Source of the DNA: an uncultured Lentimicrobiaceae bacterium
Lineage (GTDB): Bacteria > Bacteroidota > Bacteroidia > Bacteroidales > 4484-276
Assembly (NCBI GenBank): GCA_964490385.1
Contig: CAZBDF010000001.1
Coordinates: 1-36,729, forward strand
Direction: 5' to 3'
DNA length: 36,729 nucleotides
Both the position numbers and the translations under genes were made by a program. The notes beneath the pieces are model-generated. The model was not told the origin of the DNA. It made no database searches and saw nothing but the letters and a program-made list of their open reading frames with translations. Shown one piece after another: positions 1-30,635 of this stretch (position 1 is the stretch's first letter; the number at the start of each line of letters is the position of its first letter).

Positions 1-340
1 TAATTTTATTTAAGATTGCTGATTAATGAGTGTAGATTTTTGATTTATTATAATTTGATAATCAGGGACATCTTAAATTAAAAATCGTTAATCGACAATC
101 ATACATCATAATCATTGCCTAAACTTATTAGCATTGGTCCTCAGTTCGCAGTCTTCAGTGCCCTTGCTTAACCTACATTATTATGCATCATGTTTGTAAT
201 AAGTAGGGGTCATTGCGAGCGAAGCAAAGCAATCTTTTTCCAGCAATCCGTGTTTGATAAGTACTACTTTTTTTACTAAACTCTTTCCATAATAATTTCC
301 TTCCCACACCCTATTTCCTTCTCATCAACGTTAACCATTC

Positions 341-1390: not shown

Positions 1391-1527
1391 TAAGCTCACC
1401 AGCATCAATTAAAACTTCCAGTTTTTACCTTTAATCGTTTGCCCCAGGCAAGGCAACACTTGATTCAATACTCATGAAGAAATCGCATGGCCTGTCTGAA
1501 AATATGGCTGGCAGCCATGGCCTGAGT

Positions 1528-1758
1528 TTTGAATTTACAAATCCCTCGTCCGGGAATTTAATCAACATCGATATTATCGCGAAGGAGCTACAAACTGTAT
1601 CTTTTCGATTGTTTGGTTATCAGGGGCAAGTTTTATCGGAAACGCCAAAAAACACAATTCACCCTGGCAGAAGTCAATTTTCTTTTATTGTTGATTTCTT
1701 CCCGGGGATAGGGGAATCCATGCCTACAATTGTATCTGTAGTAACAAAAGATATTGTC
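1528..1758 (+). other. Orphan T9SS C-terminal-sorting-domain-like coding remnant, in frame with and directly upstream of the cyanophycinase signal peptide
   Basis: The 5' extension of ORF 1474..2613 translates as FEFTNPSSGNLINIDIIAKELQTVSFRLFGYQGQVLSETPKNTIHPGRSQFSFIVDFFPGIG. This follows the pattern of the bona fide CTDs in this window (YPNPa..l.i, then v.i.d..G..v, then l..G.Y). A CTD has no sensible role in front of a lipoprotein signal peptide. Confidence 0.3.
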
Positions 1759-2613
1759 ATGAGAAGAACCCAACTTTTTCAGTTTGTTGTGCTCGTATTG
1801 TTTTTCCTTATCAATGGATGCCAATCAAATACTCAAAAAGGCGAAACCGGTAGCCTGTTTATTATTGGCGGGGGCCAGCGCCCTCCTGAACTTATGCAAC
1901 AATTATTGGATGCTGCCAATCTCCAACCTGATGATTATATTCTTATCCTACCCTTTTCGAGTATTGAGCCCGTGGAATCTTCCAGGTATGTTACAAAGCA
2001 ATTCCTTGAACTTGGGGTATCAACTATTAAAACCCTGTTTCTAAATACTGATTCATTGTTATCTGCGTCAGCGCTGGATTCGGTGAGGGAAGCACGACTG
2101 ATTTATATCACGGGTGGAAATCAGAATTTGTTTATGAAAACTGCCAAACGAACCGGTTTAACCACTGCTATCCACGATGCATATATGCAAGGTGCAATGA
2201 TTGCCGGAACCAGTGCCGGGGCAGCTGTTATGAGTAAAAAAATGATTACCGGCAATCAGCTATCACTCGCTGAATACTCGGGGAATTTTAGGACAATCCA
2301 CCAAAATAACATCGAAATTAGCGAGGGTTTGGGGCTGCTTAACAACGCCATCATCGACCAGCACTTTATCCAGCGCGCGCGCATGAACCGTTTGCTTTCG
2401 GTTGCTATCGAATACCCGGACGAGTTATGCATTGGTATCGACGAATCCACTGCAATTCTTGTAAATGGAGATAATGCAATTGTAGTTGGGAGTAGTCAGG
2501 TTGTTGTAGTCAGTAATCACGACAAGCTAATGAAAACTCACAATGGTTTGCTTGGCGCTGAAGATCTACAAGTAAAAGTGCTGCTTCCGGGAGATTCTTT
2601 TAAAATTGATTAG
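1759..2613 (+). CDS. Cyanophycinase (peptidase family S51), predicted lipoprotein
   Basis: Cyanophycinase signature blocks are present: IIGGG, ITGGNQ, GTSAGAAVMS (nucleophile Ser), DQHFIQRARMNRL (His) and GIDESTAI. Start moved from the ORF-track 1474 to the ATG at 1759, which gives a lipobox-type signal peptide MRRTQLFQFVVLVLFFLINGC. Confidence 0.85.
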   Translation: MRRTQLFQFVVLVLFFLINGCQSNTQKGETGSLFIIGGGQRPPELMQQLLDAANLQPDDYILILPFSSIEPVESSRYVTKQFLELGVSTIKTLFLNTDSLLSASALDSVREARLIYITGGNQNLFMKTAKRTGLTTAIHDAYMQGAMIAGTSAGAAVMSKKMITGNQLSLAEYSGNFRTIHQNNIEISEGLGLLNNAIIDQHFIQRARMNRLLSVAIEYPDELCIGIDESTAILVNGDNAIVVGSSQVVVVSNHDKLMKTHNGLLGAEDLQVKVLLPGDSFKID

Positions 2614-2626
2614 CAGGTATTGATTT

Positions 2627-4039
2627 ATGAAAATAAAAACAATCGCCCCCAAAATCCCTGACACTTTTTCTATTCTGCTCATTATCATGGTAATATTTAT
2701 CGCCCTGACCTGGATAATACCTGCCGGGATGTACGACCGTGAGGTTTCAGATTTTGGGGGCATCCGCAAAGAAGTGCTGATACCAGGTTCTTACCGCCAG
2801 GTAGATTCGAACCCCCAGGGGATTGGTGCATTTTTAATGGCACCCATCAGGGGATTTATAGCTGCATCACAAATTATTGGGTTTTGCCTGCTTGTTGGAG
2901 GGGCCTTTGGAGTTTTCAACCGCACGGGAGCCATCAATGCCGGATTGACACAGGTGCTTAAAAACAGTCGAAAAAATCCCCGCCAGAAAAAGTTTATTGT
3001 CCCTTTGGTGATGCTGATTTTTTCACTTGCTGGCGCCACTTTTGGCATGAGCGAAAGTGTTTTGGTATTTATAATAATAACCATACCACTGTCACTTGCA
3101 TTGGGCTACGACAGTATTGTAGGTATTTGCATGTCGTTTTTGGCAGCTGGGGTAGGCTTCGCAGGTGCATTTTTCAATCCATTTACCATCGGTATCGCGC
3201 AGGGCATTTCCGAGATCCCCTTGTTCAGTGGTTGGGAATACAGGATTGTAATATGGCTTGTACTAACACTTGCCGCGATACTTTTCGTAGCGCGATACAT
3301 CAGGAAAATTGAAAAAAACCCTGAGCTCAGCCCGGTTTATCAAATTGATCAAAAAAGGAAACCAAGCACCATCGACAAGAATGACACCACAAAAATGACA
3401 ATAAAGCATAAAATCATTCTTTGGATATTGCTCGCTACTTTTATTATCCTGGTCATTGGATCGAACAACTGGAAATGGTATATTAACGAGATAGCGGCAC
3501 TTTTTACCGCTGCTGCAATCGTGGTGGCAATCATCTTTCGCTTGTCGGGGAAAAATGCGATGGAGGCTTTCGTGGAAGGTGCAAAGGGAATGACAATGGC
3601 AGCCTTGGTAATTGGTATTTCGAGGGGCTTACTTATCATTGCCACTGATGGCAAAATCATCGATACCATGCTTCATTCAATGGCTGAAGCCACGTCAGGA
3701 GTATCACCCGCCATTACTGCCCAAATCATGTTCCTGGTGCAAGGGGCCATCAACTTCTTCGTTCCTTCGGGTTCGGGGCAGGCGGCGCTTACCATGCCGG
3801 TTATGGCACCCCTAAGCGACCTGGTTGGTGTTTCGCGTCAAACGGCGGTACTGGCTTTTCAGCTCGGCGATGGTATTTTTAATATGATTATCCCCACCAG
3901 TGGAGTTACCATGGGCGCGCTTTCTATTGCCAAAATTCCTTATCAATTGTGGTTTAAATGGTTGCTTCCGCTAATCCTGATCCTAATGATCTTGGCCATG
4001 ATCTTGATGATCCCTCCCACAATTATGTTTCAATATTAA
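2627..4039 (+). CDS. YfcC / C4-dicarboxylate anaerobic carrier (DcuC-like) family integral membrane transporter
   Basis: 470-aa polytopic membrane protein with many hydrophobic helices. Its overall sequence resembles YfcC-type 'putative basic amino acid antiporter' proteins. It starts 13 nt after the cyanophycinase stop, so it is probably co-transcribed. Confidence 0.8.
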   Translation: MKIKTIAPKIPDTFSILLIIMVIFIALTWIIPAGMYDREVSDFGGIRKEVLIPGSYRQVDSNPQGIGAFLMAPIRGFIAASQIIGFCLLVGGAFGVFNRTGAINAGLTQVLKNSRKNPRQKKFIVPLVMLIFSLAGATFGMSESVLVFIIITIPLSLALGYDSIVGICMSFLAAGVGFAGAFFNPFTIGIAQGISEIPLFSGWEYRIVIWLVLTLAAILFVARYIRKIEKNPELSPVYQIDQKRKPSTIDKNDTTKMTIKHKIILWILLATFIILVIGSNNWKWYINEIAALFTAAAIVVAIIFRLSGKNAMEAFVEGAKGMTMAALVIGISRGLLIIATDGKIIDTMLHSMAEATSGVSPAITAQIMFLVQGAINFFVPSGSGQAALTMPVMAPLSDLVGVSRQTAVLAFQLGDGIFNMIIPTSGVTMGALSIAKIPYQLWFKWLLPLILILMILAMILMIPPTIMFQY

Positions 4040-4053
4040 CCTGATTTATCCAG

Positions 4054-4087
4054 AAAAAAAAGAGGCTGCCCGAACCGGGCAACCTCT
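4054..4087 (-). terminator. Rho-independent terminator for the minus-strand T9SS gene, between convergent genes
   Basis: Stem agaggctgcccg (4061-4072) pairs with cgggcaacctct (4076-4087): 12 bp with one mismatch and a 3-nt loop. The A7 run at 4054-4060 reads as a U tract after the hairpin on the minus strand. Confidence 0.6.
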
Positions 4088-4112
4088 AATCAAAACTATG
4101 AGAAAAATCGTA

Positions 4113-5765
4113 TTACTTGATTACAAACCTTGAAGTTTGTGTTTCATTCGCTGTTTGAACTTTCAAAAAATATACACCGGCAGGCAGGTCGGAAACACTG
4201 ATTGTTTGGGTGTTGCTATTACTAACATTGGATTTCATAACGAGGCTTCCATGGATGTTAACAATACTTAGGTTTTGGATATCATTTCCTGAAACAATAT
4301 TCAAAATATCTGTTGCAGGATTTGGATATATCGCGAGCGAAGTAACTTCCTGATCAGATATACCTGTTGTATTGGTGATATCATCAGCATCGCGTGGGTT
4401 AAGTCTATACTCTCCAAAAGAAAAATCGACAACACCGGTGATACGGTAAACTTCACCAACTGTTAAAACCACATTTAGCAGCTGATAATCCACGTTATCT
4501 CCAATTTTAAATTGTGTTGTGCCGTCATCATCTGTACAGAGATAGTAGAAGTCCTCTTCGTTGTATTCAGTTACCAGGGCATTTTGAATATAGGTTAGCT
4601 GGCCTTCCCATTTTTCAGCCGATTCGCTGCCGGCAGGAAGAGTTATGTCTATATCGGCACCCATAATGAGTGAAGCAGGGTAAGGGTTATTCCCGGTGCT
4701 AAGGGTCTGAATGAGTATTGGGGAAACCAATTCATTTAAATCGTAATAAACATCTCTTTTTGCAGTAAAGATTACCTCGTCGCCCACGGCAACTTCTTCC
4801 TGAAAACTAAACCCAAAAATCATTACACCATGATAAGCACCTTCAGCATCGTGAACCCAAACATTGTTGTAGGCATCGTTGGCTGAAATGATTGCATGGA
4901 AGGTTGCAGAAATATCATTTTCGAGTACGCCATCAGGATTTGCATCATTGGTATGCGCGATGGATGCCATTCCTGCATAAATGTTAACAGGCTCGTCCAT
5001 TCCATCCTGGTTAAGCTGGTCAATGGTTAAATCGAAAACCATACTTTCGGATGCGTCACTCAGGTGTACCAGAGTCGCATCATCAGCATCAATCATAGCA
5101 CTACTAAAGGTAATATCTGTTGTGCCACTCAACATGAAATCAGCAGCATTTACTGCTTCAACATTTCCATTATAGCGCACATCCACTTCAGTTTCGCTCA
5201 TGCAATATGCATTTTCCATGGCCAATGTGGTCCATTCTTCGTATCCGCCATTTACAACAAGGTTGGTTCCACCGCTTTCTACAAAGGAAGCATTGTCAAC
5301 ATACACGGTGGCTTCATCCACAAAATCATCCTGGTCGTAAAACTTGATCCAAACGTAGGAAAATACAGCCTCATCAGGAACTACCGCAGTCCAGGTGATG
5401 GTTTGCCACTCGGGATTGTCTTCGGAATATATGGGAGCTTCGCCATAAATGTCATTCCCATCAGCATCGTAAAAATCTGCATAAATCTTTAAGCGGCCCC
5501 TGGTATCATTATCCAGGATATCCAGTGAAAACGTGTACTCTGCTCCTGTATTCACTGCGAAGTTGTCGCTTAGTAAATATGGCACATTGGTGGTGTGAAG
5601 GTTCATCTGGCAGGATTTAGCCCCTTCAGTAAAAAATTCCGTGTTGGGCTCCAGGCTAATATCGCCCGGGCTTGGTGCGTCGATGAACCAGTTTGTTGGT
5701 ACCTGGGCCGTAAGATTAAAGGCCAGTACCATGCATGTTAAAAAGAGTAAATGTTTCAGTTTCAT
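4113..5765 (-). CDS. T9SS-secreted protein with an N-terminal CBM-like beta-sandwich, a central OB-fold-like region and a C-terminal Por/T9SS sorting domain
   Basis: Signal peptide MKLKHLLFLTCMVLAFNLTAQ. C-terminus is LAIYPNPATDILNIV...LPAGVYFLKVQTANETQTSRFVIK, a typical T9SS CTD. The N-terminal roughly 170 aa resemble carbohydrate-binding-module-like jelly rolls. The internal domain calls are tentative. Confidence 0.8.
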   Translation of the reverse strand: MKLKHLLFLTCMVLAFNLTAQVPTNWFIDAPSPGDISLEPNTEFFTEGAKSCQMNLHTTNVPYLLSDNFAVNTGAEYTFSLDILDNDTRGRLKIYADFYDADGNDIYGEAPIYSEDNPEWQTITWTAVVPDEAVFSYVWIKFYDQDDFVDEATVYVDNASFVESGGTNLVVNGGYEEWTTLAMENAYCMSETEVDVRYNGNVEAVNAADFMLSGTTDITFSSAMIDADDATLVHLSDASESMVFDLTIDQLNQDGMDEPVNIYAGMASIAHTNDANPDGVLENDISATFHAIISANDAYNNVWVHDAEGAYHGVMIFGFSFQEEVAVGDEVIFTAKRDVYYDLNELVSPILIQTLSTGNNPYPASLIMGADIDITLPAGSESAEKWEGQLTYIQNALVTEYNEEDFYYLCTDDDGTTQFKIGDNVDYQLLNVVLTVGEVYRITGVVDFSFGEYRLNPRDADDITNTTGISDQEVTSLAIYPNPATDILNIVSGNDIQNLSIVNIHGSLVMKSNVSNSNTQTISVSDLPAGVYFLKVQTANETQTSRFVIK

Positions 5766-5791
5766 AATTAATTAATTTTTAGTTAAACATA

Positions 5792-6946
5792 TTATCTGTA
5801 TTTATCAATTCCTATCGCGTAAGGGTTGCAGTCAGTTATAAAATCTTCCTTCTCGCTGCCATCGAGGTTGGCGCGTACAATAATGCCATTGGTTTTGTCG
5901 CTCCAGTATAATTTGCCTGCATCCAAATCGATGTCCATTCCCCAGCAAAATATTTCTGTCATTTCGGGGGCAATCACAACCTCCCCTGTCCCATCCAGGT
6001 TAGCCTTGCAGATGCCTTTGTCGAAATCGGCATAATACATTTTATTGTTTTCAACATCTATGCACATGGCACCACCATTTGTTCCGGGTACCAGTTCAGT
6101 AAAGGTATTTCCATTGAAATCGACACTGTACATCCCGCCGGTAAAATCATACTTATCATTTGTAAAAATAAACTTTTCTGATAAATAATCCCAGGCAAGG
6201 TCGATGGCCATTTCGGGAGGTGTGGAAAGCGACATGGGAATAAATATCTCCGATTCACTGCCATCGAAGTTGCACCTGCCAATGGCTTCCTGGGTTCCCC
6301 AGTACAATTTATCACCCACTATTTCGAGCCCAAAGGGATCGATAAGGTTGGGGTCGTTGATATCAATCACTACCTGAAGGTCGAAGCCTTCGAGGTCGTA
6401 ACTATAAATCACACCCTCGCGGTAATCAGAAACAATTACCCTTGCATTGCTGGTGTCGATTACCATTCCATAGGGTTTATCCAGGCCGGTGTGCCCAAAG
6501 TCCTGAACTATCGGTGCATTGTCGTCTAAAACTGCATACCGCACGCTGTGGGTAGTACGGTCGGTAAAATAGAGGGTTTTCGTTTTTCCGGCAGTAGGAT
6601 CCTTCACCTGCAAGTTTACAACCTTTTTAAGTGTATTGTAGTAAACCTCGTTAGACGCACCAACGGTAAGCGCAACAGTGTAAGTGCCCGGCTCGGTGTA
6701 GCTTATTTCCGGTTCCATTTCGGTGGATGTTTCGCCATTGCCAAATTCCCACAGGTAGGATGTGGCAAGAATAGATTTATTTGTGAATTTGACTGTTGTG
6801 GGAGCAGTAAGGTTATTGGTGGCCTCGTATTCGAAGTTGGCAATGGTACTGGCTTCCGGCATCAGTTCCCCGTCTTTGCATGCATCCAGCAGCAGTATCC
6901 CAATTAGGATGAAAATAAGGTTTAAAAATATTGTCGAACGTTTCAT
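5792..6946 (-). CDS. Lipoprotein with a PKD domain followed by YWTD-type six-bladed beta-propeller repeats
   Basis: Lipobox signal MKRSTIFLNLIFILIGILLLDAC. PKD-like segment VKFTNKSILATSYLWEFGNGETS...GTYTVALTV. Repeated KLYWGT, KMYYADF and KLYWSDK blade motifs. Confidence 0.8.
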   Translation of the reverse strand: MKRSTIFLNLIFILIGILLLDACKDGELMPEASTIANFEYEATNNLTAPTTVKFTNKSILATSYLWEFGNGETSTEMEPEISYTEPGTYTVALTVGASNEVYYNTLKKVVNLQVKDPTAGKTKTLYFTDRTTHSVRYAVLDDNAPIVQDFGHTGLDKPYGMVIDTSNARVIVSDYREGVIYSYDLEGFDLQVVIDINDPNLIDPFGLEIVGDKLYWGTQEAIGRCNFDGSESEIFIPMSLSTPPEMAIDLAWDYLSEKFIFTNDKYDFTGGMYSVDFNGNTFTELVPGTNGGAMCIDVENNKMYYADFDKGICKANLDGTGEVVIAPEMTEIFCWGMDIDLDAGKLYWSDKTNGIIVRANLDGSEKEDFITDCNPYAIGIDKYR

Positions 6947-6964
6947 TGTATTAAGTTTTTCGTT

Positions 6965-8290
6965 TTAATAGCCGGGATTTTGATTTTCGGGGCCAATTGC
7001 TGAATTTGTATTTATTTCGGCAAAGGGGATTGGAAAAAGTAGCTGGTCGGAACTGTTCACTGTTGGCAGGGTTTGGAGGGCAAGATTGCTCCTGATTAAA
7101 TCGAACCATCGCTGGCCTTCAAAGGTAAATTCCAACTGGCGTTGCTGAAGCATTTCCTGGAGCAGGGCATCATAATCCTGCAGGTCGACAGGCTCCAGCA
7201 TCGCCCTTTCGCGAATGGCATTGATGTCGGCATTGATTCCATCAAAGGCCGACTGCTGGCGGATACGGGCTTCGGCACGGATGAGGTACATTTCGGCAAG
7301 CCGGAACACGTACACCCGATCAGCACCGCTTGAAATCTGCCAGTATTTGATTGAATATGGCTTATCCGAAAAACCGTCGAAGGAGGCATTCAGGCGTGTA
7401 TCTTCTGCAGTAAATAGATTGATCAAATCCTCAGTTGGCGACACTTCGTAACGGCCTCCCAGCGAAGAAGGGAAACAATACTCGGCCATGCGGTTTTTGT
7501 CCTGATCGTTGTACTGCACTTCAAAAATAGATTCAGTATTGTTTTCGGAATTAAACAAGGAACTATAATCCGCCACAAGCGAATAATTGGTATTATTAAT
7601 TACAGCATTCGCGTAGCTTTCCGCGTCAGCCCACCTTAGGTCGTAAAGGGCAATTTTGGCAAGCAAAGCTTGTGCCGCTACTGACGATGCCTTCCCGCTG
7701 GCCGTGTTGCCAATGTTTTGGCTGGCAAATTCAAGATCACCAACAATGTGGGTCAACACGTCTGCCATGGACGAACGTGGTGTATCCAAATCGTCGGTCG
7801 ATAAAGTTGGTGTAACTTTTAATGGCGTATCCCCAAAATACCTGACAAGGTTAAAATAAGCCAGGCTCCTGATAAAATACAATTGCCCGGTGATGTTATT
7901 TTTATCTGCATCAGAAATATTTTCTACATTAGGCAGGTAATACAATACATTGTTTACACGGTTGATGGCAATATAACAAGCATTCCAGATTGATTCCGCG
8001 ATGGTATTGTTCGAAAGCAGGTTGTTCAAACTGATGTTGTAATATTCCAGGATGGTTCCGGTGGCATTGGCATTGTCCGACGAAAGCTCGGCAGCTAAAA
8101 CAGTATGCCGGCCATAAAATCCTGGCAATTGCAGGGCATCATAACAACCGTTGAGGGCCTGGTTGAGGTCTGATTGTGTTTGAATAGCCTCATTGGCAGG
8201 TATTGATTGTGTAGGCCCTGTATCAAGCTTGGCGCAGGATGCTGCTACAAATATCAAAAACAGAAATAATATATTCTTTTTCATTGTCAT
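6965..8290 (-). CDS. SusD/RagB family outer-membrane nutrient-binding lipoprotein
   Basis: Lipoprotein signal (FLIFVAASC) and the TPR-like SusD sequence character (LYFIRSLAYFNLVRYFGDTPL, AEMYLIRAEA, QRQLEFTFEGQRWFDLIR). It lies 6 nt downstream of the SusC-type gene. Confidence 0.9.
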   Translation of the reverse strand: MTMKKNILFLFLIFVAASCAKLDTGPTQSIPANEAIQTQSDLNQALNGCYDALQLPGFYGRHTVLAAELSSDNANATGTILEYYNISLNNLLSNNTIAESIWNACYIAINRVNNVLYYLPNVENISDADKNNITGQLYFIRSLAYFNLVRYFGDTPLKVTPTLSTDDLDTPRSSMADVLTHIVGDLEFASQNIGNTASGKASSVAAQALLAKIALYDLRWADAESYANAVINNTNYSLVADYSSLFNSENNTESIFEVQYNDQDKNRMAEYCFPSSLGGRYEVSPTEDLINLFTAEDTRLNASFDGFSDKPYSIKYWQISSGADRVYVFRLAEMYLIRAEARIRQQSAFDGINADINAIRERAMLEPVDLQDYDALLQEMLQQRQLEFTFEGQRWFDLIRSNLALQTLPTVNSSDQLLFPIPFAEINTNSAIGPENQNPGY

Positions 8291-8296
8291 AAGTTT

Positions 8297-11200
8297 TTAA
8301 AATTTGAGATTTAAACCAACAGAAAATACGCGAGCAGAGGGATAGGTAAAAAAATCGGTACCATAGCGTAAATCATCATTTCCGGCATAATTAACTTCCG
8401 GGTCCATCCCGCTGTAGTTGGTTATCGTGAAAAGGTTTTGGGCTACAAGGTATAATTCCAGACGGCTCAGGCGCATTTTTTCAAGAACTTTTGGTTTAAA
8501 ATCATAAGAAAGCCTTACAGTTTTAAATCGGAGATAAGAGCCATCTTCAATAAACCTGGATGAAGCCCTGTCGTTAATGTTGAGGTCGGCATTGGTGGCA
8601 CGCGGAATTTGGCTAATGTCGCCCGGCTGCCGCCAACGATTCTGTATAGCTTGCAATTGATTGTCCTGCCCTTTCATCGACTCGATGTACCTCCTCGTGC
8701 CATTAAAAATGTCGTTACCATAGGTGTATTGAAGCATGATGTTCAGTGTAAATCCCTTGTACGAGAATATATTGGTGAGTGAACCAATAAAGTCGGGGTT
8801 GGGATCGCCAATAACCGTCCGGTCATTTTCGGTAATTTCACCATCGCCATCCACATCCCTAAAAACGATGTCGCCCGTTGACGGGTCAACCCCGAGGGAT
8901 TCATAATTGTAAAAAACCCCAATAGGGTAGCCAACCCTCACGCTGTTTTCGCCCCTTCCAATCTGGTCGATTGGAATATCGTTGTACAATTTTGTTACTT
9001 CATTGCGGTTCAGGCTGAAATTTGTTGAAAGATCCCATTTGAACTCCCTTTCAATAATTTTGGCACCAAGCATAATTTCAATACCGTTGTTTTTCATCTC
9101 GCCAATATTTGAGATATAGGATCCAAAACCTGATGAAGGCGGAACCGGCCGGTATAGAAGGAGGTCCTTGGTTTGCTTGTTGTAAAAATCAAATTCAAAG
9201 GTTAGCTTGTTACTGAACATCGAAAGGTTAAATCCAATATCAAACTGGGTTGTCGATTCCCATTTCAGGTCAGGGTTTGGAAGTTGTGATGGATAGATGC
9301 CCGGGTTGAGTTGGTAATTTGCCCCTGACGAGTAAAGGTTCATATAGGCAAAATCAGGGATTCCGTCGTTACCCGTTAAACCATAACTTACACGGACTTT
9401 TAAATCATCTATGGAACTAACATTGAAAAAATCCTCTTCAGAAATCCTCCACGCGGCCGAAGCGGCAGGAAAGAAGCCATACTGATTATTGCCACCAAAC
9501 TTTGAAGAGCCATCATAACGGCCACTCAGGGTAAACAGGTATTTGTATTTAAAATCATATTTAACCTCGCCAAAAAAGGAATTCAGCCCGCGGTCGAGCG
9601 CCGAGGCACTGCCAGCGGTAATAGTAGCAGCCGAAGCAATGTATTGGAAGTTCTCGTTGGGGAAATCCTGTCCGCGCAAATAAGTTGACCTGCGTTGGTA
9701 TTTTTCAAAACTATATCCCAGCAGGGCATTAATTTGATGCTTCCCGTCAATTTCAGTTACATATCTTAAAATATTATTGCTCACAACATTCATCACGTTG
9801 GCAGTTGATTCAATGCCGAGTCCATTGTATTTTCCACCCTGTCGTGTCGTGGGCGGGTCGTAGGTATGCTCGCGCAGGTTATAATAATCGGCACTCCATT
9901 TGGTGTTAAAAGTCAATCCCTTATAAATCCTTATATCTGCAAAAATGCTTGAAATGCTCCTGAAAGAATAGTTCTCGTTGACGTGTAGGTTGCCGATAGA
10001 CACCGGGTTTGCAAATGGACCGTCATCGTTATAAGTACCATCGGGATTGTAAACAGGATATATGGCCGGCATGGCAATGGCATTGGCCAGCGGCGAATTC
10101 AAGGATTGGTCGCCTTCCTTACGGTCGTTCTTCGAGTAACTCAAACCTATATTGGCCCCAACATTGATAAAGTCGTTTACTTTCACATCGAGGTTGGCGC
10201 GGCCATTTAAGCGGTCGTATGCCGTCCCAATCAAAGTACCTTCCTGAGTAAAATAATTTCCCGAGATATAGTACTTGGTTGATTTTGACCCTCCGACAGC
10301 AGACAATTCATAGTTGGCGATTGGCGCTGTGCTCAACACTTCATCCAACCAATCGGTGTCAATGGTATTGGTCTCAATTTCTTCCTGTGAATATACAGGC
10401 AATCCACCGGCTGCAATACTTGCATCATTTTTATACTCCATAAATTCCCTCGCGTTGAGCATGTCCAGTTTTTTGGCTACCTGCTGAACACCATAGTAGG
10501 CACTGAAATTGATTTTAGTTTTTTCGGCAGATCCTTTTTTCGTGGTAATCAGGATCACACCATTTGAAGCACGGCTTCCATAAATTGTTGTTGCTGATGC
10601 ATCTTTCAAAACACTTATTGATTCGATGTCGCTGGGGTTAATGTCGGAAATGGCACTGGTGGTTTGGCCACTAAAACCTATTTGTCCAAAATCGCCGGTA
10701 ATGATCGGGATTCCGTCAACCACGTAAAGGGGCTCACTCCCGGCGTTGATGGAACTTATCCCACGCACCCTCACCGAGATTCCCCCACCAGGTGTTCCCG
10801 AATTACTTACCACCTGCACACCCGTTGACTTTCCCTGGAGAATTTGATCGATACTAGAAACTGGTTTCTCGGCGAGTTCATCGCCCTTGATGGTACTCAC
10901 TGAACTGGTGAGCAACTTTCGGCTTGATGAACCATAGCCAACCACAACCATCTCTTCAAGCTGTGTTGCAACTGGGCGAAGGGCTACATCAATCTCATTT
11001 TTGTCAGCCAACACCTCTAATGTTTGGTAGCCAATAAAGGAAAATATAAGCACCGACAAATTATCTGGCACCTCAATTTCGTACGCTCCGTCGATACCTG
11101 TTGCCGTGCCTTTAAGTGTACCTTTTATAACGATGCTCACCCCGGGCAAGGTGGAACCATTACTCGCATCTGTAACAGTTCCCCTGATCTTTTTTCCTTC

Positions 11201-11599
11201 CTGGGGAACTACCGGGGGCGATTTTTCGGCTTTCTTTTCTTTTGGTGTAAGCACTATTTTTTGCTGGATAATTTCGTGCTGGATATTCTTTTCATCCAAC
11301 AAACCATTCAATACATCTTCAAGGGAGGCTTCGTTGTAGTTCACCGATACTGCCTGTTCAACATCAATTTTTGATGCATTGTAGACAAAGGTATAGTCAC
11401 ACTGCTTTTCAATTTTTTGAAGGACGGTCTTTAAAGGCTCGTCTTCCACGTCAAGGTTAATGGGCTTGCCTTGCCCTACACTTGCTTTTGCAGGAATGGG
11501 GATGAAAAATACCACCATTAGCAGCACCATTAAAACCTGGCTAAACACCTGATTAAACCTGGTGGCACCTTTTTGTTTAAAAAGTAAGCTTTGTTGCAT
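8297..11599 (-). CDS. SusC/RagA-type TonB-dependent transducer with an N-terminal STN signalling domain
   Basis: 1100 aa. STN-like segment (PINLDVEDEPLKTVLQKIEKQCDYTFVYN), carboxypeptidase-regulatory-like domain (IRGTVTDASNGSTLPGVSIVIKGT), plug (SVSTIKG...ILQGKSTGVQV, PLYVVDGIPI), and a terminal beta-barrel ending VGLNLKF. Confidence 0.95.
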   Translation of the reverse strand: MQQSLLFKQKGATRFNQVFSQVLMVLLMVVFFIPIPAKASVGQGKPINLDVEDEPLKTVLQKIEKQCDYTFVYNASKIDVEQAVSVNYNEASLEDVLNGLLDEKNIQHEIIQQKIVLTPKEKKAEKSPPVVPQEGKKIRGTVTDASNGSTLPGVSIVIKGTLKGTATGIDGAYEIEVPDNLSVLIFSFIGYQTLEVLADKNEIDVALRPVATQLEEMVVVGYGSSSRKLLTSSVSTIKGDELAEKPVSSIDQILQGKSTGVQVVSNSGTPGGGISVRVRGISSINAGSEPLYVVDGIPIITGDFGQIGFSGQTTSAISDINPSDIESISVLKDASATTIYGSRASNGVILITTKKGSAEKTKINFSAYYGVQQVAKKLDMLNAREFMEYKNDASIAAGGLPVYSQEEIETNTIDTDWLDEVLSTAPIANYELSAVGGSKSTKYYISGNYFTQEGTLIGTAYDRLNGRANLDVKVNDFINVGANIGLSYSKNDRKEGDQSLNSPLANAIAMPAIYPVYNPDGTYNDDGPFANPVSIGNLHVNENYSFRSISSIFADIRIYKGLTFNTKWSADYYNLREHTYDPPTTRQGGKYNGLGIESTANVMNVVSNNILRYVTEIDGKHQINALLGYSFEKYQRRSTYLRGQDFPNENFQYIASAATITAGSASALDRGLNSFFGEVKYDFKYKYLFTLSGRYDGSSKFGGNNQYGFFPAASAAWRISEEDFFNVSSIDDLKVRVSYGLTGNDGIPDFAYMNLYSSGANYQLNPGIYPSQLPNPDLKWESTTQFDIGFNLSMFSNKLTFEFDFYNKQTKDLLLYRPVPPSSGFGSYISNIGEMKNNGIEIMLGAKIIEREFKWDLSTNFSLNRNEVTKLYNDIPIDQIGRGENSVRVGYPIGVFYNYESLGVDPSTGDIVFRDVDGDGEITENDRTVIGDPNPDFIGSLTNIFSYKGFTLNIMLQYTYGNDIFNGTRRYIESMKGQDNQLQAIQNRWRQPGDISQIPRATNADLNINDRASSRFIEDGSYLRFKTVRLSYDFKPKVLEKMRLSRLELYLVAQNLFTITNYSGMDPEVNYAGNDDLRYGTDFFTYPSARVFSVGLNLKF

Positions 11600-11617
11600 A
11601 TTTTTTTGGTTTATAGT

Positions 11618-12577
11618 TTACTTGGTAAAAGATATAGTGATAACATCATCAGTTTTTGAATAGCTCATCGGACTAATTTTTTGCATGAGCAGTAAAACTT
11701 CAGCAAGCGTATTTTTGTCGATAGTAAATGTGTATAGGTCATTATTTCGACCGGGATTTGAAATTTCAATTTCCACGCCATACCACCGCTCCAGCTTCCG
11801 GCATACAGAATAAATATCTTCCTGATCAAACACCAGCTTACCATCTGCCCATTGGGTCAGCATTTGTGCATCTACTTTCGATACACTCCCTGATTTGCTC
11901 ATGCTATTGTAGGTGTGCTGTTCGCCCGGTATCAGTTCAACGCTTTTATAATTTTCGTTGCATGTAACTTGTACCTTGCCCGAAACAAGTACGGTTTGTA
12001 CAAGCGGATCGCCCGGGTAGGAGGCCACCGAGAATTGTGTACCCAAAACAGAAACTGTAATCTCGGAAGTATTTACATGAAAAGGCATGCTTTCTGATTT
12101 GGCCACGTCAAAAAATGCCATTCCGCTTAAAGATACTTCCCTACATTTTTTATCAAAACTTTCAGGGTATTCAATCAGGCTCGATCCGGCCAGGATAACC
12201 TTGGAGCCATCAGGTAGTGTAAGTGGCGTTCGCTGGCCTGCCGGACTTTGTATGCTAAGCATTTTGGGTGAATGCCCAGAAAAAATGTCGCCGGAGTATA
12301 TTATTCCGGCAATGATTAATCCTACGAGCAACACAGCGGCAACCCTGATTAGTGGCGCAAATCTGTGGATAAATGGCTGCCTGATCGTTTTCAGGTAAAT
12401 ATTATTCAACATCCTTTCCCTTGTTTCCTTGGGTAATTCAGCCGGGTTAATGTTGTTCCACTGCCCTTTCAACATTTGCTCCGATTCAGGAAGGGAATAC
12501 ACCTTGTCCTTTTCTTTTGAAGTTGCCTGGCCTAACATGAACCGGGTGAGCAATCCTTTTTTTTCCTCTTTTTGCAT
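11618..12577 (-). CDS. FecR-family transmembrane anti-sigma factor
   Basis: 319 aa with a single central TM helix (VAAVLLVGLIIAGIIY). FecR-type periplasmic domain (LPDGSKVILAGSSLIEYP, VSLSGMAFFDV, FHVNTSEITVSVLGTQF). It lies 18 nt upstream of the STN-SusC gene. Confidence 0.9.
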   Translation of the reverse strand: MQKEEKKGLLTRFMLGQATSKEKDKVYSLPESEQMLKGQWNNINPAELPKETRERMLNNIYLKTIRQPFIHRFAPLIRVAAVLLVGLIIAGIIYSGDIFSGHSPKMLSIQSPAGQRTPLTLPDGSKVILAGSSLIEYPESFDKKCREVSLSGMAFFDVAKSESMPFHVNTSEITVSVLGTQFSVASYPGDPLVQTVLVSGKVQVTCNENYKSVELIPGEQHTYNSMSKSGSVSKVDAQMLTQWADGKLVFDQEDIYSVCRKLERWYGVEIEISNPGRNNDLYTFTIDKNTLAEVLLLMQKISPMSYSKTDDVITISFTK

Positions 12578-12705
12578 CGGAGTTTTATTGTTTGATAATG
12601 TTCATACAACTGTGGCGCAACTATCCCTTAGTGGAAAAAGAGTTTTTTGCAAGATTTTCAGGGGAGGGTATTTGGTGACTGTGTGGAAAAGCAAATTATG
12701 ACTTG

Positions 12706-12836
12706 CCCTGGCATTTATGCCAGGGACTGAAGTGATGCAGGATAATTGGGTTTTAGCCCAAATAATCAAGGTTTGGGCTAAAGCCCATTATAATCAATGA
12801 GCCTTCAATCTCCGGGCTATAGCCCGGGGGAAGTCA
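12706..12836. repeat. Cluster of short DNA palindromes / hairpin modules (GGGCTWWAGCCC family plus a 9-bp-arm palindrome)
   Basis: Four modules: ccctggcatttatgccaggg (12706-12725), ttgggttttagcccaaat (12746-12763), ggtttgggctaaagccca (12770-12787), and ccgggctatagcccgg, a perfect 16-bp palindrome (12812-12827), followed by gggaagtca. The same modules recur at 21697-21795. Confidence 0.7.
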
Positions 12837-12911
12837 GTTTTCAGGTTGTTTTCACACAGTCTTTGAAGGACGGGATTATTGATTCTTTTATTGTCAATTT
12901 TCATGAATTAT

Positions 12912-13466
12912 TCAGGAGTAATCTTTTAGTGCAACACGCAATGCTTTTAATGCCAAACCAATATGCACTTCTACGGTTTTAGCAGAGATGTTAAGCTGCT
13001 GGCTGATTTCTTTGTGCGATAAACCTTTAATCCGGCTCAACTCGAAAACAAGTTTTCGCTTTTCGGGCATGGCATCGATGTGTTGGTGCAATATATCGGA
13101 TACTTCATCAAGCAGAACAGTTTGCTCTGTATCGTTATTATTTTTCAAATGATTTTTCAGGTACTCGATGTAGTTCCATTCGTGAACCATTTTCTTATGC
13201 CGGTTAAAAATGATATTGCGGGCAATGGTAAAAATATAAGCGTTGAAATTAGCACCAGGGTCAACAGAAGTTCTTGACTCCCATAGTTTCACAAATACAT
13301 TTTGGGTTATTTCTTCGGCATCAGCCGGATTGTGAACATAGGTTTGGGCAAAGTAAAAAATCTTGTCGCTGTAAAGGTGGAAGATCTCTGTAAAGGCTTT
13401 TTCATCACCTTCCTTGAAAGCCTGTATGATAGATTGCCGAACCGGTGATGTTTTGTTGCTGCTCAA
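12912..13466 (-). CDS. ECF (group 4 sigma-70) RNA polymerase sigma factor
   Basis: 184 aa. Region 2 (AFTEIFHLYSDKIFYFAQTYV, EITQNVFVKLWE) and a region 4 HTH (LSHKEISQQLNISAKTVEVHI). The only in-frame start near the conserved N-terminus is TTG at 13466, with no ATG available. Confidence 0.9.
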   Translation of the reverse strand: MSSNKTSPVRQSIIQAFKEGDEKAFTEIFHLYSDKIFYFAQTYVHNPADAEEITQNVFVKLWESRTSVDPGANFNAYIFTIARNIIFNRHKKMVHEWNYIEYLKNHLKNNNDTEQTVLLDEVSDILHQHIDAMPEKRKLVFELSRIKGLSHKEISQQLNISAKTVEVHIGLALKALRVALKDYS

Positions 13467-13491
13467 AAAATACTTCTTGCTTGATTAAAAG

Positions 13492-13499
13492 CAAAAGTA
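13492..13499 (-). promoter_or_regulatory. Candidate Bacteroidota -7 promoter box (TAnnTTTG) for the sigma/anti-sigma/SusCD unit
   Basis: The minus strand reads TACTTTTG, 25 nt upstream of the TTG start, inside the 68-nt gap after the preceding gene. This is a motif match only. Confidence 0.3.
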
Positions 13500-13534
13500 T
13501 GTTTTTTTTTTGCGATAGTAAGGCCGAAATTTAC

Positions 13535-15517
13535 TCAGTGTTGCACTATTATTTTTTGTAGAATATTTTCTTTCGTGTCAAATTCGGCTTCAAGAAAATA
13601 AACTCCCGGGATGAGCCCTGTTAAACTTATTTGATGGTCAGACAGAGATTTGCTTTCATTGAATACTTTTTGTCCGGTGATGGAATAAATCGAAACTGAG
13701 AATGCTTGTTTTTGGCAAGTGATATTGAGTAGTTCAGCAGCCGGATTGGGCCAGACCCGAAACAATTCTATTTCTCCCTTTTGATCATTGTCGATTGAAT
13801 ATGCACTAACATGGCTTCCCGTTTGAAACTTTACAGGGCTGTTAATCAGTCTGATTTTCATGCTTTCGAAGCCTGCAATCATTTTGGGCGTGTTGTATTG
13901 CGCCGAATAGGTTTTTGTGGCAAAACCGCCTTTGGTGTTTTGCAATTCAATGATCATGGCAGGGGCATCACCAAAAGAGGTCACAAAAGTGTTCTGATCG
14001 GCAGGGGCATATTTCATGTAGTTCTTGCTTGTAAGCCATATCCCAAACCTGGCCTTGTACTGAAGCATGGCAAAAGGAATTCCGGCAGCGGGATTCATAT
14101 ACATGTCCGAATTTTTGTAACTATTGGGGATAATAACAGTTGTTTTTAGTAAGCCCAGGCCCTCCTTAAAAATTAGGGAGCCGGTTCCCGCGGCATTGTC
14201 AAGCAGGTAATTTTCGATAACTGTTTTGCCGGCAAAGCGGCTGTTATCGCCAACAAATGCAATCACCTTTCCATCGTGACTTACACGATCGGCCAATAAT
14301 GCGCCATTGTTACCCTCATCAATAAAATGTTCCAAGATGTAATATTCGTTGTTTACAAACAAAAACTTTTCTGCTTCGTTGATGGCCCTTTCAAAATCGG
14401 GGTCCTCTCCCATTGATGCCACGCCACTATAAATCTGCACGTTTTGGGCACCAAGGTTATTCAGGCTGTTTTTAAAGGTTTCGGCCACAGCTTGATTTGA
14501 GCCGGTAATAATCAATAGGTCATCCGAAGGATTTCCGCACAGGTTTGCCAGGTTATTCAGCATTTCCTGATTGTCATTTAATGCATCGCCGCCACTGGCC
14601 AATATTAGGTAGTTGCCATTTTCTTCATCCACTTCCGGCGAAAATTCTTCACTAAGACCTGTTATTTCCCCGGTATTGAAATCAATGGTACATCCATGCA
14701 ATAGCTGGGAAATTTCTAACGAATCAACAATCAGCATTTCTTCATCGAGGTGATAAGGTTCTGGGGACAAAGGTTTGTAAAGGTTTGCTGCCCCGGTTCC
14801 GTAAACCATACCTATGTTATCCCGTGAGATAGTCATTGCCGTGGTTTCATCAATTCCTACCCCATCGATAAGTTCGTCACGGTTCATTTTCCAATGGGCC
14901 AGAAAACCCAGCATCCGGCCACCACGTCCACGGTCGGTAAAATGAGAGTCGAAAATATAGCCCGGGAAGAAATCGAAGAAATCATTTTCGAGTGTTAGAT
15001 ATTGGTTGTTTGGGTCCTCGATGCATTCATCGGGATAAACACTTCCACGCTCGGCCGTAAAAATTACTTCCGACAAAACGGCCAGACCGGCTGAAGTTCC
15101 ACAAATCACCCCACCCTGTTCCCATTTATCAATGATAGCCTGTTGGGTTAGCGTACCTTTATATGTAGCGTAATAATTCCACTGGTCGCCCCCTTTCAAG
15201 AATATCACATCATAATTCATCAAACTATCGTAGGTAGCCTGGCTGTTTGCGATGTTCTGCGAATTTATTTTAAAATCTTTAGCAGCCACGGCACCACAAT
15301 GCTCCACAAGGTAGGTCCGCATCCAGCCTGAAGCTGAAGAATAAGAAACTATGGCCACTTTTTTATTAAACGATTGTTCCACTGCCCAGGAGTAAGGTTC
15401 GGTGCTCCAGGCATCCTCTTCGTCCGATTCGCTTCCGCCACCAATTATTAACAGGCTTCCTTGCGAAAACAATATCACGGGAAGGAAAATTAAAATTGCA
15501 AGTAGTTTATATTTCAT
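13535..15517 (-). CDS. T9SS-secreted tandem peptidase-S51 (cyanophycinase-like) protein: intact domain 1, degenerate domain 2, T9SS CTD
   Basis: Signal peptide MKYKLLAILIFLPVILFSQ. Domain 1 has IIGGGSE, FLKGGDQ, CGTSAGLAVLS, FDSHFTDRGRGGRM and GVGIDETTAM. Domain 2 (about aa 303-525) has parallel blocks ILASGGDA, FLFVNNE, FVGDNSRFAG, IIPNSYKN and GIWLTSKN, with no obvious Ser/His. CTD: FRVWPNPAAELLNIT...IPGVYFLEAEF. Confidence 0.85.
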   Translation of the reverse strand: MKYKLLAILIFLPVILFSQGSLLIIGGGSESDEEDAWSTEPYSWAVEQSFNKKVAIVSYSSASGWMRTYLVEHCGAVAAKDFKINSQNIANSQATYDSLMNYDVIFLKGGDQWNYYATYKGTLTQQAIIDKWEQGGVICGTSAGLAVLSEVIFTAERGSVYPDECIEDPNNQYLTLENDFFDFFPGYIFDSHFTDRGRGGRMLGFLAHWKMNRDELIDGVGIDETTAMTISRDNIGMVYGTGAANLYKPLSPEPYHLDEEMLIVDSLEISQLLHGCTIDFNTGEITGLSEEFSPEVDEENGNYLILASGGDALNDNQEMLNNLANLCGNPSDDLLIITGSNQAVAETFKNSLNNLGAQNVQIYSGVASMGEDPDFERAINEAEKFLFVNNEYYILEHFIDEGNNGALLADRVSHDGKVIAFVGDNSRFAGKTVIENYLLDNAAGTGSLIFKEGLGLLKTTVIIPNSYKNSDMYMNPAAGIPFAMLQYKARFGIWLTSKNYMKYAPADQNTFVTSFGDAPAMIIELQNTKGGFATKTYSAQYNTPKMIAGFESMKIRLINSPVKFQTGSHVSAYSIDNDQKGEIELFRVWPNPAAELLNITCQKQAFSVSIYSITGQKVFNESKSLSDHQISLTGLIPGVYFLEAEFDTKENILQKIIVQH

Positions 15518-15531
15518 CTTATAAAAGAGGT

Positions 15532-16692
15532 TTATTTGCTAAAATAGGTTTTCCTGACGATTTTGTAGTTATTGATGATGAGTTCTCCTTTAGCAATCAT
15601 TACAACTATTTCCAGGTTTTTATCCAGGATTAAAAAATCTGCATCGAAGCCCGGCTGGATTTTGCCTTTGGTTTTCAACTTCAGTACTTCTGCCACGTTA
15701 GTACTCAATATGCTGATGGCAGTAGTCATGCTCATTTTCTCTTCCCTTAACATATCCCTGAATTCGTGGAGCAGGCTGATAGGTTTTCCGGTTTCGAGCT
15801 TCACAAGTTTTCCATTTTCATCAAATCCTGGTAAAGAACCCCCGGCATCCGAACTCATCGTAATATGATTGAGTGGTACGCCAGCCGCAATCAATTCTGC
15901 AGCAGCACGCGATGGTTTTATTTCATATTCGGGAAAATACGGGTAGGAGCTGGAAGTTATATCCACCACACCATTTCTGCCATACACTTTTGCATCTTCA
16001 AAAATATACTCGTTGCGGTTGACATGTGTTGGCAAAAATTGTTTGTATCCAAGCTCAGAATTCTCCACCACATCGTATAGGGGTTTAAAAGGGTTTTTGG
16101 CATCGCCCATGTGGATATTTACAATGCCGGCTTTCCCACCCAGCATTCCGCCTACACGAGCGTCTGCAGCAATTTTCGCTATTTCTGATATTGTGGGCAC
16201 CGAACTACGGTGATCGGAAAGGGCAATTTCCCCGGCACCAATCACCTCTTCAATCATCGCGATATCCTCGGCCACGCTACCAAGGATTGTAGGAGGTGGC
16301 ACCTGGTAAGCCCCGGTGTACATGTAGGCGGTTATCCCTTCATTGTTAAGCACTTTGGCTTTCATGAGCACCGAGCGGGGATCCCGTGTTATACCATCTG
16401 TACCCAGACATCCTACAGCCGTACACACGCCGGCTTCAAAAAAATCATTGATGTGCATCTCGGGTGTACGTGTTGCTGGCCCACCTTCACCTCCCGCACC
16501 GGAAAAATGGCAATGGCTATCTATGAAACCGGGAATCAACATGTGACTATCAGCATTAATCACCGTGTTGATATAGGGTGCTTTTCCCGAAATGGATCCA
16601 TCAATAAATTGGATCTTGTTTCCTGCCAGCAAAATATCTTTTTTCCCCAGCGCATCAGGTGAAAAAATCTGTGCATTCTTTATTAGTATCAT
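15532..16692 (-). CDS. iadA: Isoaspartyl (beta-aspartyl) dipeptidase
   Basis: Amidohydrolase-fold IadA signature: PGFIDSHCHFSGAGGEGGPATRTPE, ALSDHRSS, IHMGD, LPTHVNR and MSSDAGGS. Start moved from 16746 to the ATG at 16692 (MILIKNAQIF...), because the 18-aa extension looks spurious. It ends 14 nt before the tandem S51 gene. Confidence 0.9.
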   Translation of the reverse strand: MILIKNAQIFSPDALGKKDILLAGNKIQFIDGSISGKAPYINTVINADSHMLIPGFIDSHCHFSGAGGEGGPATRTPEMHINDFFEAGVCTAVGCLGTDGITRDPRSVLMKAKVLNNEGITAYMYTGAYQVPPPTILGSVAEDIAMIEEVIGAGEIALSDHRSSVPTISEIAKIAADARVGGMLGGKAGIVNIHMGDAKNPFKPLYDVVENSELGYKQFLPTHVNRNEYIFEDAKVYGRNGVVDITSSSYPYFPEYEIKPSRAAAELIAAGVPLNHITMSSDAGGSLPGFDENGKLVKLETGKPISLLHEFRDMLREEKMSMTTAISILSTNVAEVLKLKTKGKIQPGFDADFLILDKNLEIVVMIAKGELIINNYKIVRKTYFSK

Positions 16693-16883
16693 GGTGTAGT
16701 TGTCTGTTTCATTGCATATCAAAAAAAACCTTATGAATAAATACAATTGAAGAACAACAATCCCTTAAAGGGAAGTGGGCTTTTTACTTCAATACTATTT
16801 TCAAATTAACTTTAAAATAAGTCGATTAATATCGGGAAAACAAAAACCATAACAATGTTGCCCATACGGACTTGCTTTGCGTC

Positions 16884-16930
16884 GCAAGTTACAGGTTACA
16901 AGTTGCAACCTGTAACTTGCAACCTGCAAC
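16884..16930. repeat. Hairpin element of the GCAAGTTACAGGTT family
   Basis: Perfect 14-bp stem gcaagttacaggtt (16884-16897) pairing with aacctgtaacttgc (16907-16920), 9-nt loop, followed by the partial arm aacctgcaac. A related element in inverted orientation lies at 24692-24756. Confidence 0.6.
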
Positions 16931-16990
16931 GATTCCGAATTGTTTTTAAGTAACGAAATTATCGTTAACAATAGTGGTCTTCGTAAATGC

Positions 16991-30527: not shown

Positions 30528-30635
30528 GACCTCATCCCCCAGCCCCTTCTCCTGAAGGAGAAGGGGAGTGCCAACGCACGGACCGACCTCTCCCCAACCC
30601 TCTCCTGAAGGAGAGGGAGTGCCAGCGCACAGGCT
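30528..30635. repeat. Two tandem GC-rich hairpin units of about 53 nt ('GEGWGEV' element), abutting the stop codon of the 1201-aa gene
   Basis: Unit alpha is gacctcatcccccagccccttctcctgaaggagaaggggagtgccaacgcacg. Unit beta is gaccgacctctccccaaccctctcctgaaggagagggagtgccagcgcacaggct. Each has a 9-10-bp central hairpin. They are about 90% identical by eye to the units at 36205-36362. Confidence 0.75.

Follow-up and report, generated by a model that had tools for sequence, protein, structure and literature searches.

What does a SusC/SusD transporter import when its neighbours encode peptidases of family S51 and an isoaspartyl dipeptidase? This question is raised by a locus at positions 1759 to 16692 of a 36,729-nucleotide stretch of DNA (the window) from an uncultured Lentimicrobiaceae bacterium (contig CAZBDF010000001.1, assembly GCA_964490385.1). 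In addition to the SusC/SusD pair, the locus encodes two S51 proteins resembling cyanophycinases, the dipeptidase IadA, a YfcC-type inner-membrane carrier, candidate surface-binding proteins and a regulatory module of an extracytoplasmic function (ECF) sigma factor and a FecR-type anti-sigma factor. It is probably a cyanophycin utilization locus of the type proposed for Salinivirga, and its likely substrate is cyanophycin or a closely similar beta-aspartyl polyamide.

A preliminary description of the window, made from its letters, had assigned these genes and suggested a full pathway for cyanophycin. All of its gene calls, coordinates and gaps are reproduced by a map of open reading frames (ORFs) and profile searches: from iadA to the gene of a 550-residue protein sorted by the type IX secretion system (T9SS), the genes follow one another on the minus strand at distances of 14, 68, 334, 18, 6, 18 and 26 nt, in the order and with the spacing described (6-68 nt, except for a single gap filled with repeats), susC and susD being adjacent at 6 nt. 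A second unit on the plus strand, which consists of the genes of an S51 lipoprotein and of the YfcC-type carrier, converges on this block. Between the stop codons of the converging yfcC and T9SS-protein genes sits a strong bidirectional intrinsic terminator, the best terminator-like site within positions 1-17500. The profile searches bear out the assignment to the S51, IadA, YfcC, SusC, SusD and STN families; the secreted S51 protein remains below the cyanophycinase equivalog cutoff, and the YfcC carrier below the cutoff of NF008611.

Related genomes indicate that this neighbourhood is not accidental. A scan of a genome collection with one genome per species yielded 80 loci, and all window proteins were compared by tblastn (L001 is a second copy of the window contig; L086 and L087 are loci of Flavobacteriaceae). 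A full-length orthologue of the secreted 660-residue S51 protein occurs in 47 loci, and 23 of these are flanked by 8 kb or more on each side. Orthologous SusC and SusD are both present in 19 of these 23 well-flanked loci, and the S51-SusC/SusD arrangement is thus beyond chance; the other components are found in fewer of them (second S51 in 16, IadA in 14, PKD/propeller lipoprotein in 13, YfcC in 12, ECF and FecR in 10). The window is a metagenome contig (ENA ERZ27315495); its nearest relative in the genome collection, the lake Bacteroidales metagenome-assembled genome (MAG) Tobar13m-G16, shares the gene order and 64-85% amino acid identity across the cluster. The window order of IadA, T9SS-sorted S51, ECF, FecR, STN-bearing SusC, SusD, PKD/propeller lipoprotein and T9SS protein is also seen in a 4.86-Mb genome (L002; 45-79% identity), where a DcuC-family gene is convergent on the block. 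Other loci are rearranged: the order is FecR-SusC-SusD-PKD-(T9SS protein)-S51-IadA-ECF-S51-YfcC in L006, L007, L021, L084 and L085; IadA lies on the opposite strand, followed by S51, S51-like, SusC, SusD, PKD and YfcC, in L009-L013, L018 and L024; and S51-SusC-SusD-PKD-PKD-S51-YfcC is the order in Cytophagales, two cultured strains among them, Marivirga sericea DSM 4125 (L039) and Marinigracilibium pacificum KN852 (L040). The well-flanked loci show at least four different gene orders, and several orders are found across Bacteroidales, Cytophagales and Flavobacteriales; the conserved core comprises two S51 proteins, SusC, SusD, YfcC and a surface lipoprotein. Linkage that is kept through such rearrangement is strong evidence of shared function, and the adjacency of S51 and SusC/SusD, on which the preliminary description had made its reading depend, proves to be conserved.

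The same comparison bears on the possibility that the locus is an ordinary glycan-type polysaccharide utilization locus (PUL), with its carbohydrate-active enzymes elsewhere and S51 and IadA as coincidental neighbours. A SusC/SusD pair with ECF and anti-sigma factors is the standard architecture of a glycan PUL, the T9SS protein contains a fold resembling carbohydrate-binding modules (CBMs), and a CE4 deacetylase gene lies 370 nt from the cluster. However, domain searches of the window proteins detect no glycoside hydrolase or polysaccharide lyase in the locus, as had been stated, and searches of the extra genes inside the related clusters, L086 and L087 included, detect none there; these extra genes encode lipoproteins with PKD and Cleaved_Adhesin domains, T9SS proteins, more S51 and one transposase, that is, binding-type surface proteins and further S51 rather than glycoside hydrolases. 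The CE4 gene, which had been taken as the far edge of the locus, is missing from every related locus, its place being taken by DUF3857 genes in the closest MAG; because it has no counterpart next to related loci, it is not part of the system. With the S51 adjacency conserved across three orders, a glycan PUL is extremely improbable. Since glycoside hydrolases, polysaccharide lyases and carbohydrate esterases are missing from the cluster and its relatives alike, the locus is PUL-like in architecture and not a polysaccharide locus. The transposase mentioned above (DDE_Tnp_1, L084 12209-14074) is encoded between the secreted S51 gene and iadA, with another copy at the margin of L084.

The enzyme that is proposed to act first is the secreted S51 protein of 660 residues, for which more than 350 homologues of approximately the same length exist, mostly in MAGs of Bacteroidales, Lentimicrobiaceae and Cytophagales. 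It comprises a catalytic S51 domain (~20-292), a second domain (~300-570; window 13535-14620) and a type A C-terminal sorting domain (586-660). An AlphaFold 2 (AF2) model based on 40 homologues is of high quality (predicted local distance difference test, pLDDT, 91.5; predicted template modelling score 0.81), and Foldseek superimposes its first domain on CphB structures with template modelling (TM) scores of 0.75-0.81 (E 1e-16 to 1e-19). Alignment with solved cyanophycinases shows that GTSAG, D-S-H, R-G-R-GG-R, GIDE and the Gln of GGDQ/GGNQ are retained. These motifs correspond to the catalytic residues of CphB and to its pocket next to Ser132, with Q101, D172, Q173, R178, R180 and R183, the numbering and the roles being as reported by Law et al. 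2009.

The second domain, which is conserved, is in the model an alpha/beta domain with strands and helices in the same order as in the first, and it gives no Pfam match when the second half is searched alone. BLASTP of one half against the other gives E = 0.04, and hhalign of the profiles of the two halves gives a probability of 9.5%, which is weak, although the two halves are aligned in register. Both the Ser and the His motifs are missing from the second half in alignment and model, VGDNSRFAG and IPNSY being found at the nucleophile-elbow and D-x-H positions; the domain's own invariant residues include G423, R427, G430 and W494. Because the order of elements is the same, Pfam gives no match, the alignment is weak but in register and the motifs are lost, the second domain most probably represents a duplicated S51 fold that is catalytically dead, as judged mainly from the model, in which the strands and helices of the two domains correspond one to one in their order. 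The ‘tandem S51’ protein of the preliminary description is thus upheld with respect to fold and not with respect to chemistry. Since CphB is a homodimer, the packed live and dead domains may mimic this dimer in one chain, as a pseudo-dimer; alternatively, the second domain may be a substrate-binding module.

The second cyanophycinase candidate, the S51 lipoprotein, matches CphB (3EN0, 7UQW) and 7UQV in GTSAG, DQHF, R-x-R-xx-R and GIDE, has the Gln of GGDQ/GGNQ and retains all residues of the CphB pocket, including R178, R180 and R183. Because its scores against CphB-type chains (73-97 bits) far exceed that against PepE (~32 bits), it belongs to the cyanophycinase branch of S51, and its homologues in cultured Flavobacteriaceae are annotated by NCBI as cyanophycinase. 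Its ORF is open from 1474, while the signal peptide and lipobox begin at 1759; the 95 codons before the signal peptide (1474-1758) match no family and the orthologues begin at the signal peptide, so that 1759 is the likely start. In 14 of 16 orthologues the signal peptide ends in Cys, in agreement with the lipoprotein nature that had been assigned to this enzyme. The periplasmic side that had been assigned along with it finds no such support, since the residues following the Cys are compatible with either face of the outer membrane and form no deciding pattern.

The gene of the YfcC-type carrier lies beside that of an S51 orthologue in no fewer than 12 loci, among them those of Ignavibacteria and Aminicenantes MAGs and of cultured Flavobacteriaceae. 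In the Ignavibacteria and Aminicenantes MAGs, i.e. outside Bacteroidota (L042, L045, L055, L069), the S51-YfcC pair occurs without SusC/SusD, which suggests that it represents an older module for the production and uptake of dipeptides to which SusC/SusD was joined later.

The export signals of the two S51 proteins also speak to the possibility that S51, IadA and YfcC serve the turnover of cyanophycin stored by the cell itself and that the neighbouring SusC/SusD genes are functionally unrelated. Some Bacteroidota encode CphA. In producers, cphB-type genes usually cluster with cphA1 (PMC10206079). The 36.7-kb window, however, contains no cphA, the T9SS domain on one S51 protein and the lipoprotein signal on the other place neither in the cytoplasm, and the same SusC clade accompanies the S51 genes through several rearrangements. 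Service to an internal store is therefore very unlikely.

The end product of the pathway is indicated by its last enzyme. The match of IadA to TIGR01975 covers model positions 2-388 of 389, and it begins at the Met encoded at 16692 in an ORF that is open to 16746; no signal peptide is predicted in the protein, and its predicted location is cytoplasmic. In two cultured Flavobacteriaceae, Christiangramia lutea (L086) and Galbibacter mesophilus (L087), the place of IadA is taken by an Asparaginase_2 (IaaA-type) gene (9021-9968 and 9042-9983, respectively) within the order SusC-SusD-Asparaginase_2-S51-DcuC/YfcC-S51; SusC of these loci is 38-39% identical to window SusC, and the 660-residue secreted form of S51 is absent from both. 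IaaA belongs to the Asparaginase_2 family and is, besides IadA, the enzyme known to hydrolyse beta-Asp-Arg (PMC10206079). The sequences thus point to a non-orthologous replacement of the dipeptidase step in Flavobacteriaceae, and the exchange of IadA and IaaA at one and the same step suggests that beta-aspartyl dipeptides are the product around which the locus is built.

A more serious alternative is that the locus serves other aspartyl-rich or isoaspartyl peptides (oligopeptides as in RagAB systems, proteins with isoaspartyl damage, poly-aspartate, or cyanophycin containing Lys or Orn) and that its S51 proteins are cyanophycinase-like with a different specificity. This is unlikely, but several observations that weigh against cyanophycin as the substrate speak for it. 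The secreted S51 protein scores 91.9 bits with TIGR02069, below the cyanophycinase equivalog cutoff of 126.6, and it has Ser at the position of CphB Gln173, its sole pocket-residue difference from CphB. The solved chain closest in sequence to both S51 proteins is 7UQV, which its depositors titled ‘pseudo-CphB’; if 7UQV is inactive on cyanophycin despite having the same pocket, the sequence-based S51 assignments would be weakened. The S51 family includes aspartyl dipeptidases (PepE) and enzymes of microcin C (McC) processing as well. IadA and IaaA are promiscuous enzymes that accept many beta-aspartyl dipeptides and do not fix the substrate (PMC10206079). On the other hand, the lipoprotein S51 is above the cyanophycinase cutoff and far closer to CphB-type chains than to PepE, both S51 proteins retain the three Arg residues of the CphB pocket, and no other peptidase family recurs in the related clusters; moreover, a beta-aspartyl dipeptidase has been recruited twice independently, as IadA or as IaaA, which speaks for a pathway that ends in beta-linked Asp dipeptides.

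Three further points weigh against a cyanophycin utilization locus. Known cyanophycinases release mostly dipeptides (PMC10206079), and for dipeptides SusC/SusD and a second cyanophycinase are not obviously needed. Four of the 23 well-flanked loci with the secreted S51 protein (L008, L028, L029, L083) have no orthologous SusC/SusD pair nearby. Finally, the likeness to the Salinivirga locus is judged from the published description of that locus. In sum, the full-pathway reading for cyanophycin is supported in silico by the conserved linkage, the retained residues, the IadA/IaaA exchange and the co-variation of STN with the regulators, to which we now turn.

SusC orthologues in the related loci are 38-82% identical to window SusC, as opposed to 27-28% for unrelated paralogues in the same stretches, and SusD orthologues are 31-73% identical. 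The presence of STN on SusC coincides with that of FecR and ECF in 29 of 29 loci (L001-L085): in 13 loci the SusC match includes the STN region and both regulators are present, whereas in 16 it starts at residue ~130-138 and both are absent. This co-variation indicates that the predicted trans-envelope signalling module is an optional addition to the conserved core that is tightly coupled to STN.

The long gap between the sigma factor and fecR genes is largely filled by a structured element, in which the terminal inverted repeats GACTGTGTGGAAA and TTTTCACACAGTC (13 nt) enclose three or four GC-rich palindromes and whose predicted fold is unusually stable (-74.5 kcal/mol, z = -7.7). It is found neither in the same gap of related loci, which measures ~115-120 nt in L002 and L003 compared with 334 nt in the window, nor in any of 87 other loci, and an Rfam search of the window yields no known RNA. 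The element is probably a small mobile insertion, of the miniature inverted-repeat transposable element (MITE) type, or one resembling repetitive extragenic palindromes (REP). A sigma-70 promoter scan, which does not cover Bacteroidota promoters, is uninformative (42 sites as opposed to 36 expected).

Two further proteins may act at the cell surface. In Bacteroidota, an acidic stretch directly after the lipidated Cys, of the CKDGE type, is tied to surface exposure; the signal peptide of the PKD/propeller lipoprotein ends in LLLDAC and is followed by KDGE. Its gene follows susD, the position typical of surface binding proteins, and it lies downstream of SusD in 13 of the 23 well-flanked loci, lipoproteins with PKD and Cleaved_Adhesin domains being found elsewhere instead. 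The PKD/propeller lipoprotein is accordingly placed here among the candidate surface substrate-binding proteins. The AF2 model of the 550-residue T9SS protein (pLDDT 83) consists of an N-terminal jelly roll, Ig-like beta-sandwich and barrel modules and, at the end, a type A sorting domain. Foldseek relates the N-terminal module to CBM4, CBM16 and CBM22 (TM ~0.6-0.69) and reveals no catalytic fold in the model, while relatives of the protein bear CBM_4_9 or LTD (lamin-tail) domains; orthologues occur in L002, L003 and L005, and weaker ones in L007, L021 and L085. It is a putative non-catalytic surface protein.

These components could facilitate the use of cyanophycin in the following manner: The 660-residue S51 protein, exported by the T9SS, would cut cyanophycin at or near the cell surface, as its domains and retained residues suggest. 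SusD, the PKD/propeller lipoprotein and the CBM-like T9SS protein would hold the polymer or its oligomers at the surface, and SusC, energized by TonB, would import beta-Asp-Arg oligomers or dipeptides. Loaded SusC would signal through STN to FecR, upon which the ECF sigma factor would be released and the locus induced. The lipoprotein S51 would trim imported oligomers to dipeptides, presumably beta-Asp-Arg, which the YfcC-type carrier would take across the inner membrane for cleavage into Asp and Arg by cytoplasmic IadA. The locus encodes a second cyanophycinase that is not cytoplasmic, which suggests import of oligomers and not of dipeptides alone; the import and trimming of oligomers is nevertheless the weakest step of the model. 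Taken together, the evidence on balance favours a SusC/SusD clade of Bacteroidales, Cytophagales and Flavobacteriales that is devoted to cyanophycin oligomers, with optional sensing by STN, FecR and ECF and with a T9SS-exported pseudo-dimer of one live and one dead S51 domain.

Table 1. Features of the locus and of its surroundings in the window, with strand and supporting matches.
Feature	Positions	Strand	Basis
iadA	15532-16692	-	TIGR01975, 460 bits (cutoff 331)
T9SS-secreted S51, proposed extracellular cyanophycinase	13535-15517	-	Pfam Peptidase_S51 (22-235), Por_Secre_tail (588-658)
ECF sigma factor	12912-13466	-	Pfam Sigma70_r2, Sigma70_r4_2, Sigma70_ECF
Structured element, sigma-fecR gap	12677-12861		~185 nt, 13-nt inverted repeat at the ends
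FecR-type anti-sigma factor	11618-12577	-	Pfam FecR, FecR_C
SusC/RagA TonB-dependent transporter with N-terminal STN	8297-11599	-	TIGR04056, 926 bits; STN PF07660, 36.7 bits, residues 69-120
SusD-family lipoprotein	6965-8290	-	Pfam SusD_RagB, SusD-like_3
PKD + YWTD/DUF5050 beta-propeller lipoprotein	5792-6946	-	Pfam PKD_4, Ldl_recept_b, DUF5050
550-residue T9SS CBM-like protein	4113-5765	-	Por_Secre_tail; AF2 model; Foldseek
Bidirectional intrinsic terminator	4061-4087		12-bp stem, 8 GC pairs, T-runs on both sides
YfcC/DcuC-family inner-membrane carrier	2627-4039	+	Pfam DcuC, 370 bits; NF008611 YfcC, 398 bits (below cutoff 500)
S51 lipoprotein (MRRTQLFQFVVLVLFFLINGC...)	1759-2613	+	TIGR02069 cyanophycinase, 153.2 bits (cutoff 126.6)
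CE4 deacetylase, outside the locus	341-1390		
hipB-hipA toxin-antitoxin pair	18010-19661	-	HTH_3; Couple_hipA, HipA_C
T9SS-sorted protein, distal	30634-34239	-	1201 residues
343-residue ORF, distal	34285-35316	-	No Pfam match
T9SS-sorted protein, distal	35578-36705	-	375 residues

Upstream of iadA lie rlmF and, adjoining it, the hipB-hipA pair, which are unrelated to the locus; the pair is also present on L001. The two distal T9SS-sorted proteins are almost without recognizable domains.

The locus can be compared with several known systems. Trans-envelope PULs of Bacteroides likewise have adjacent susC and susD genes, STN on SusC, FecR, an ECF sigma factor and surface lipoproteins encoded after susD; in contrast to them, the window locus contains no glycoside hydrolase, lyase or esterase, its enzymes being S51 serine peptidases and an amidohydrolase dipeptidase and its predicted substrate a polyamide. 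The transport complex of the Salinivirga locus is reportedly also regarded as homologous to PULs. The window secreted S51 protein shares its fold, the Ser nucleophile, the His and the Arg pocket with intracellular CphB of Synechocystis and extracellular CphE of Pseudomonas, the latter as described, and its predicted location is extracellular as that of CphE; it differs from both in its type A C-terminal domain for T9SS export and in the additional degenerate S51-like domain of ~270 residues. RagAB of Porphyromonas gingivalis (Madej et al. 2020) is, by description, similar to the system proposed here in that a SusC/SusD pair takes up non-glycan, peptide-type cargo generated by T9SS-secreted peptidases. 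There, however, ribosomal oligopeptides are produced by gingipains and no dedicated downstream pathway is part of the locus, whereas the window encodes the whole proposed pathway together.

Uptake of cyanophycin-derived material has been predicted before. In Citromicrobium sp. JLT1363, a TonB-dependent transporter is encoded next to a cyanophycinase gene, and cyanophycin was proposed as its substrate from the gene context (Tang et al. 2012, PMC3400609); as in the window, the prediction rests on genome context, but this transporter is alphaproteobacterial, and no SusD partner, T9SS enzyme or ECF/FecR module is described there. The closest precedent is the ‘cyanophycin utilization locus’ of Salinivirga cyanobacteriivorans L21-Spi-D4 (Ben Hania et al. 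2017, Environ Microbiol 19:1134), in which, according to Sharon et al. 2023, cyanophycinases are encoded together with iadA and a transporter; of the two cyanophycinases, one has a Por secretion domain and the other lacks it (Sorokin et al. 2018). The window, too, contains an S51 protein with a Por/T9SS domain, a second one without it, iadA and transporters, namely SusC, SusD and YfcC, in this case in an uncultured member of Bacteroidales near a lake MAG; none of the 80 loci of the genome scan is a Salinivirga record. The window locus is thus a further example of a locus type that was proposed in 2017 and is still hypothetical, and since this type was described then, the idea is not new and the novelty is low. 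In the searchable literature, no experimental study, biochemical or genetic, of a SusC/SusD importer for cyanophycin was found, and neither were biochemical or expression data for any locus of this type. What is added beyond a single genome is the breadth and modularity of the family, the exchange of IadA and IaaA and the co-variation of STN, FecR and ECF.

Cultured carriers are suited to a direct test: Marivirga sericea DSM 4125, Marinigracilibium pacificum KN852, Christiangramia lutea and Galbibacter mesophilus. If the reading as a cyanophycin utilization locus is true, a well-defined non-glycan substrate would join the SusC/SusD repertoire, which would be useful for the study of cargo recognition and signalling. 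As cyanobacterial blooms and mats decay, a large reservoir of fixed nitrogen is freed in the form of cyanophycin, and a dedicated, inducible import across the outer membrane would account for the way in which anaerobic Bacteroidota of stratified lakes, mats and sediments compete for this polymer.

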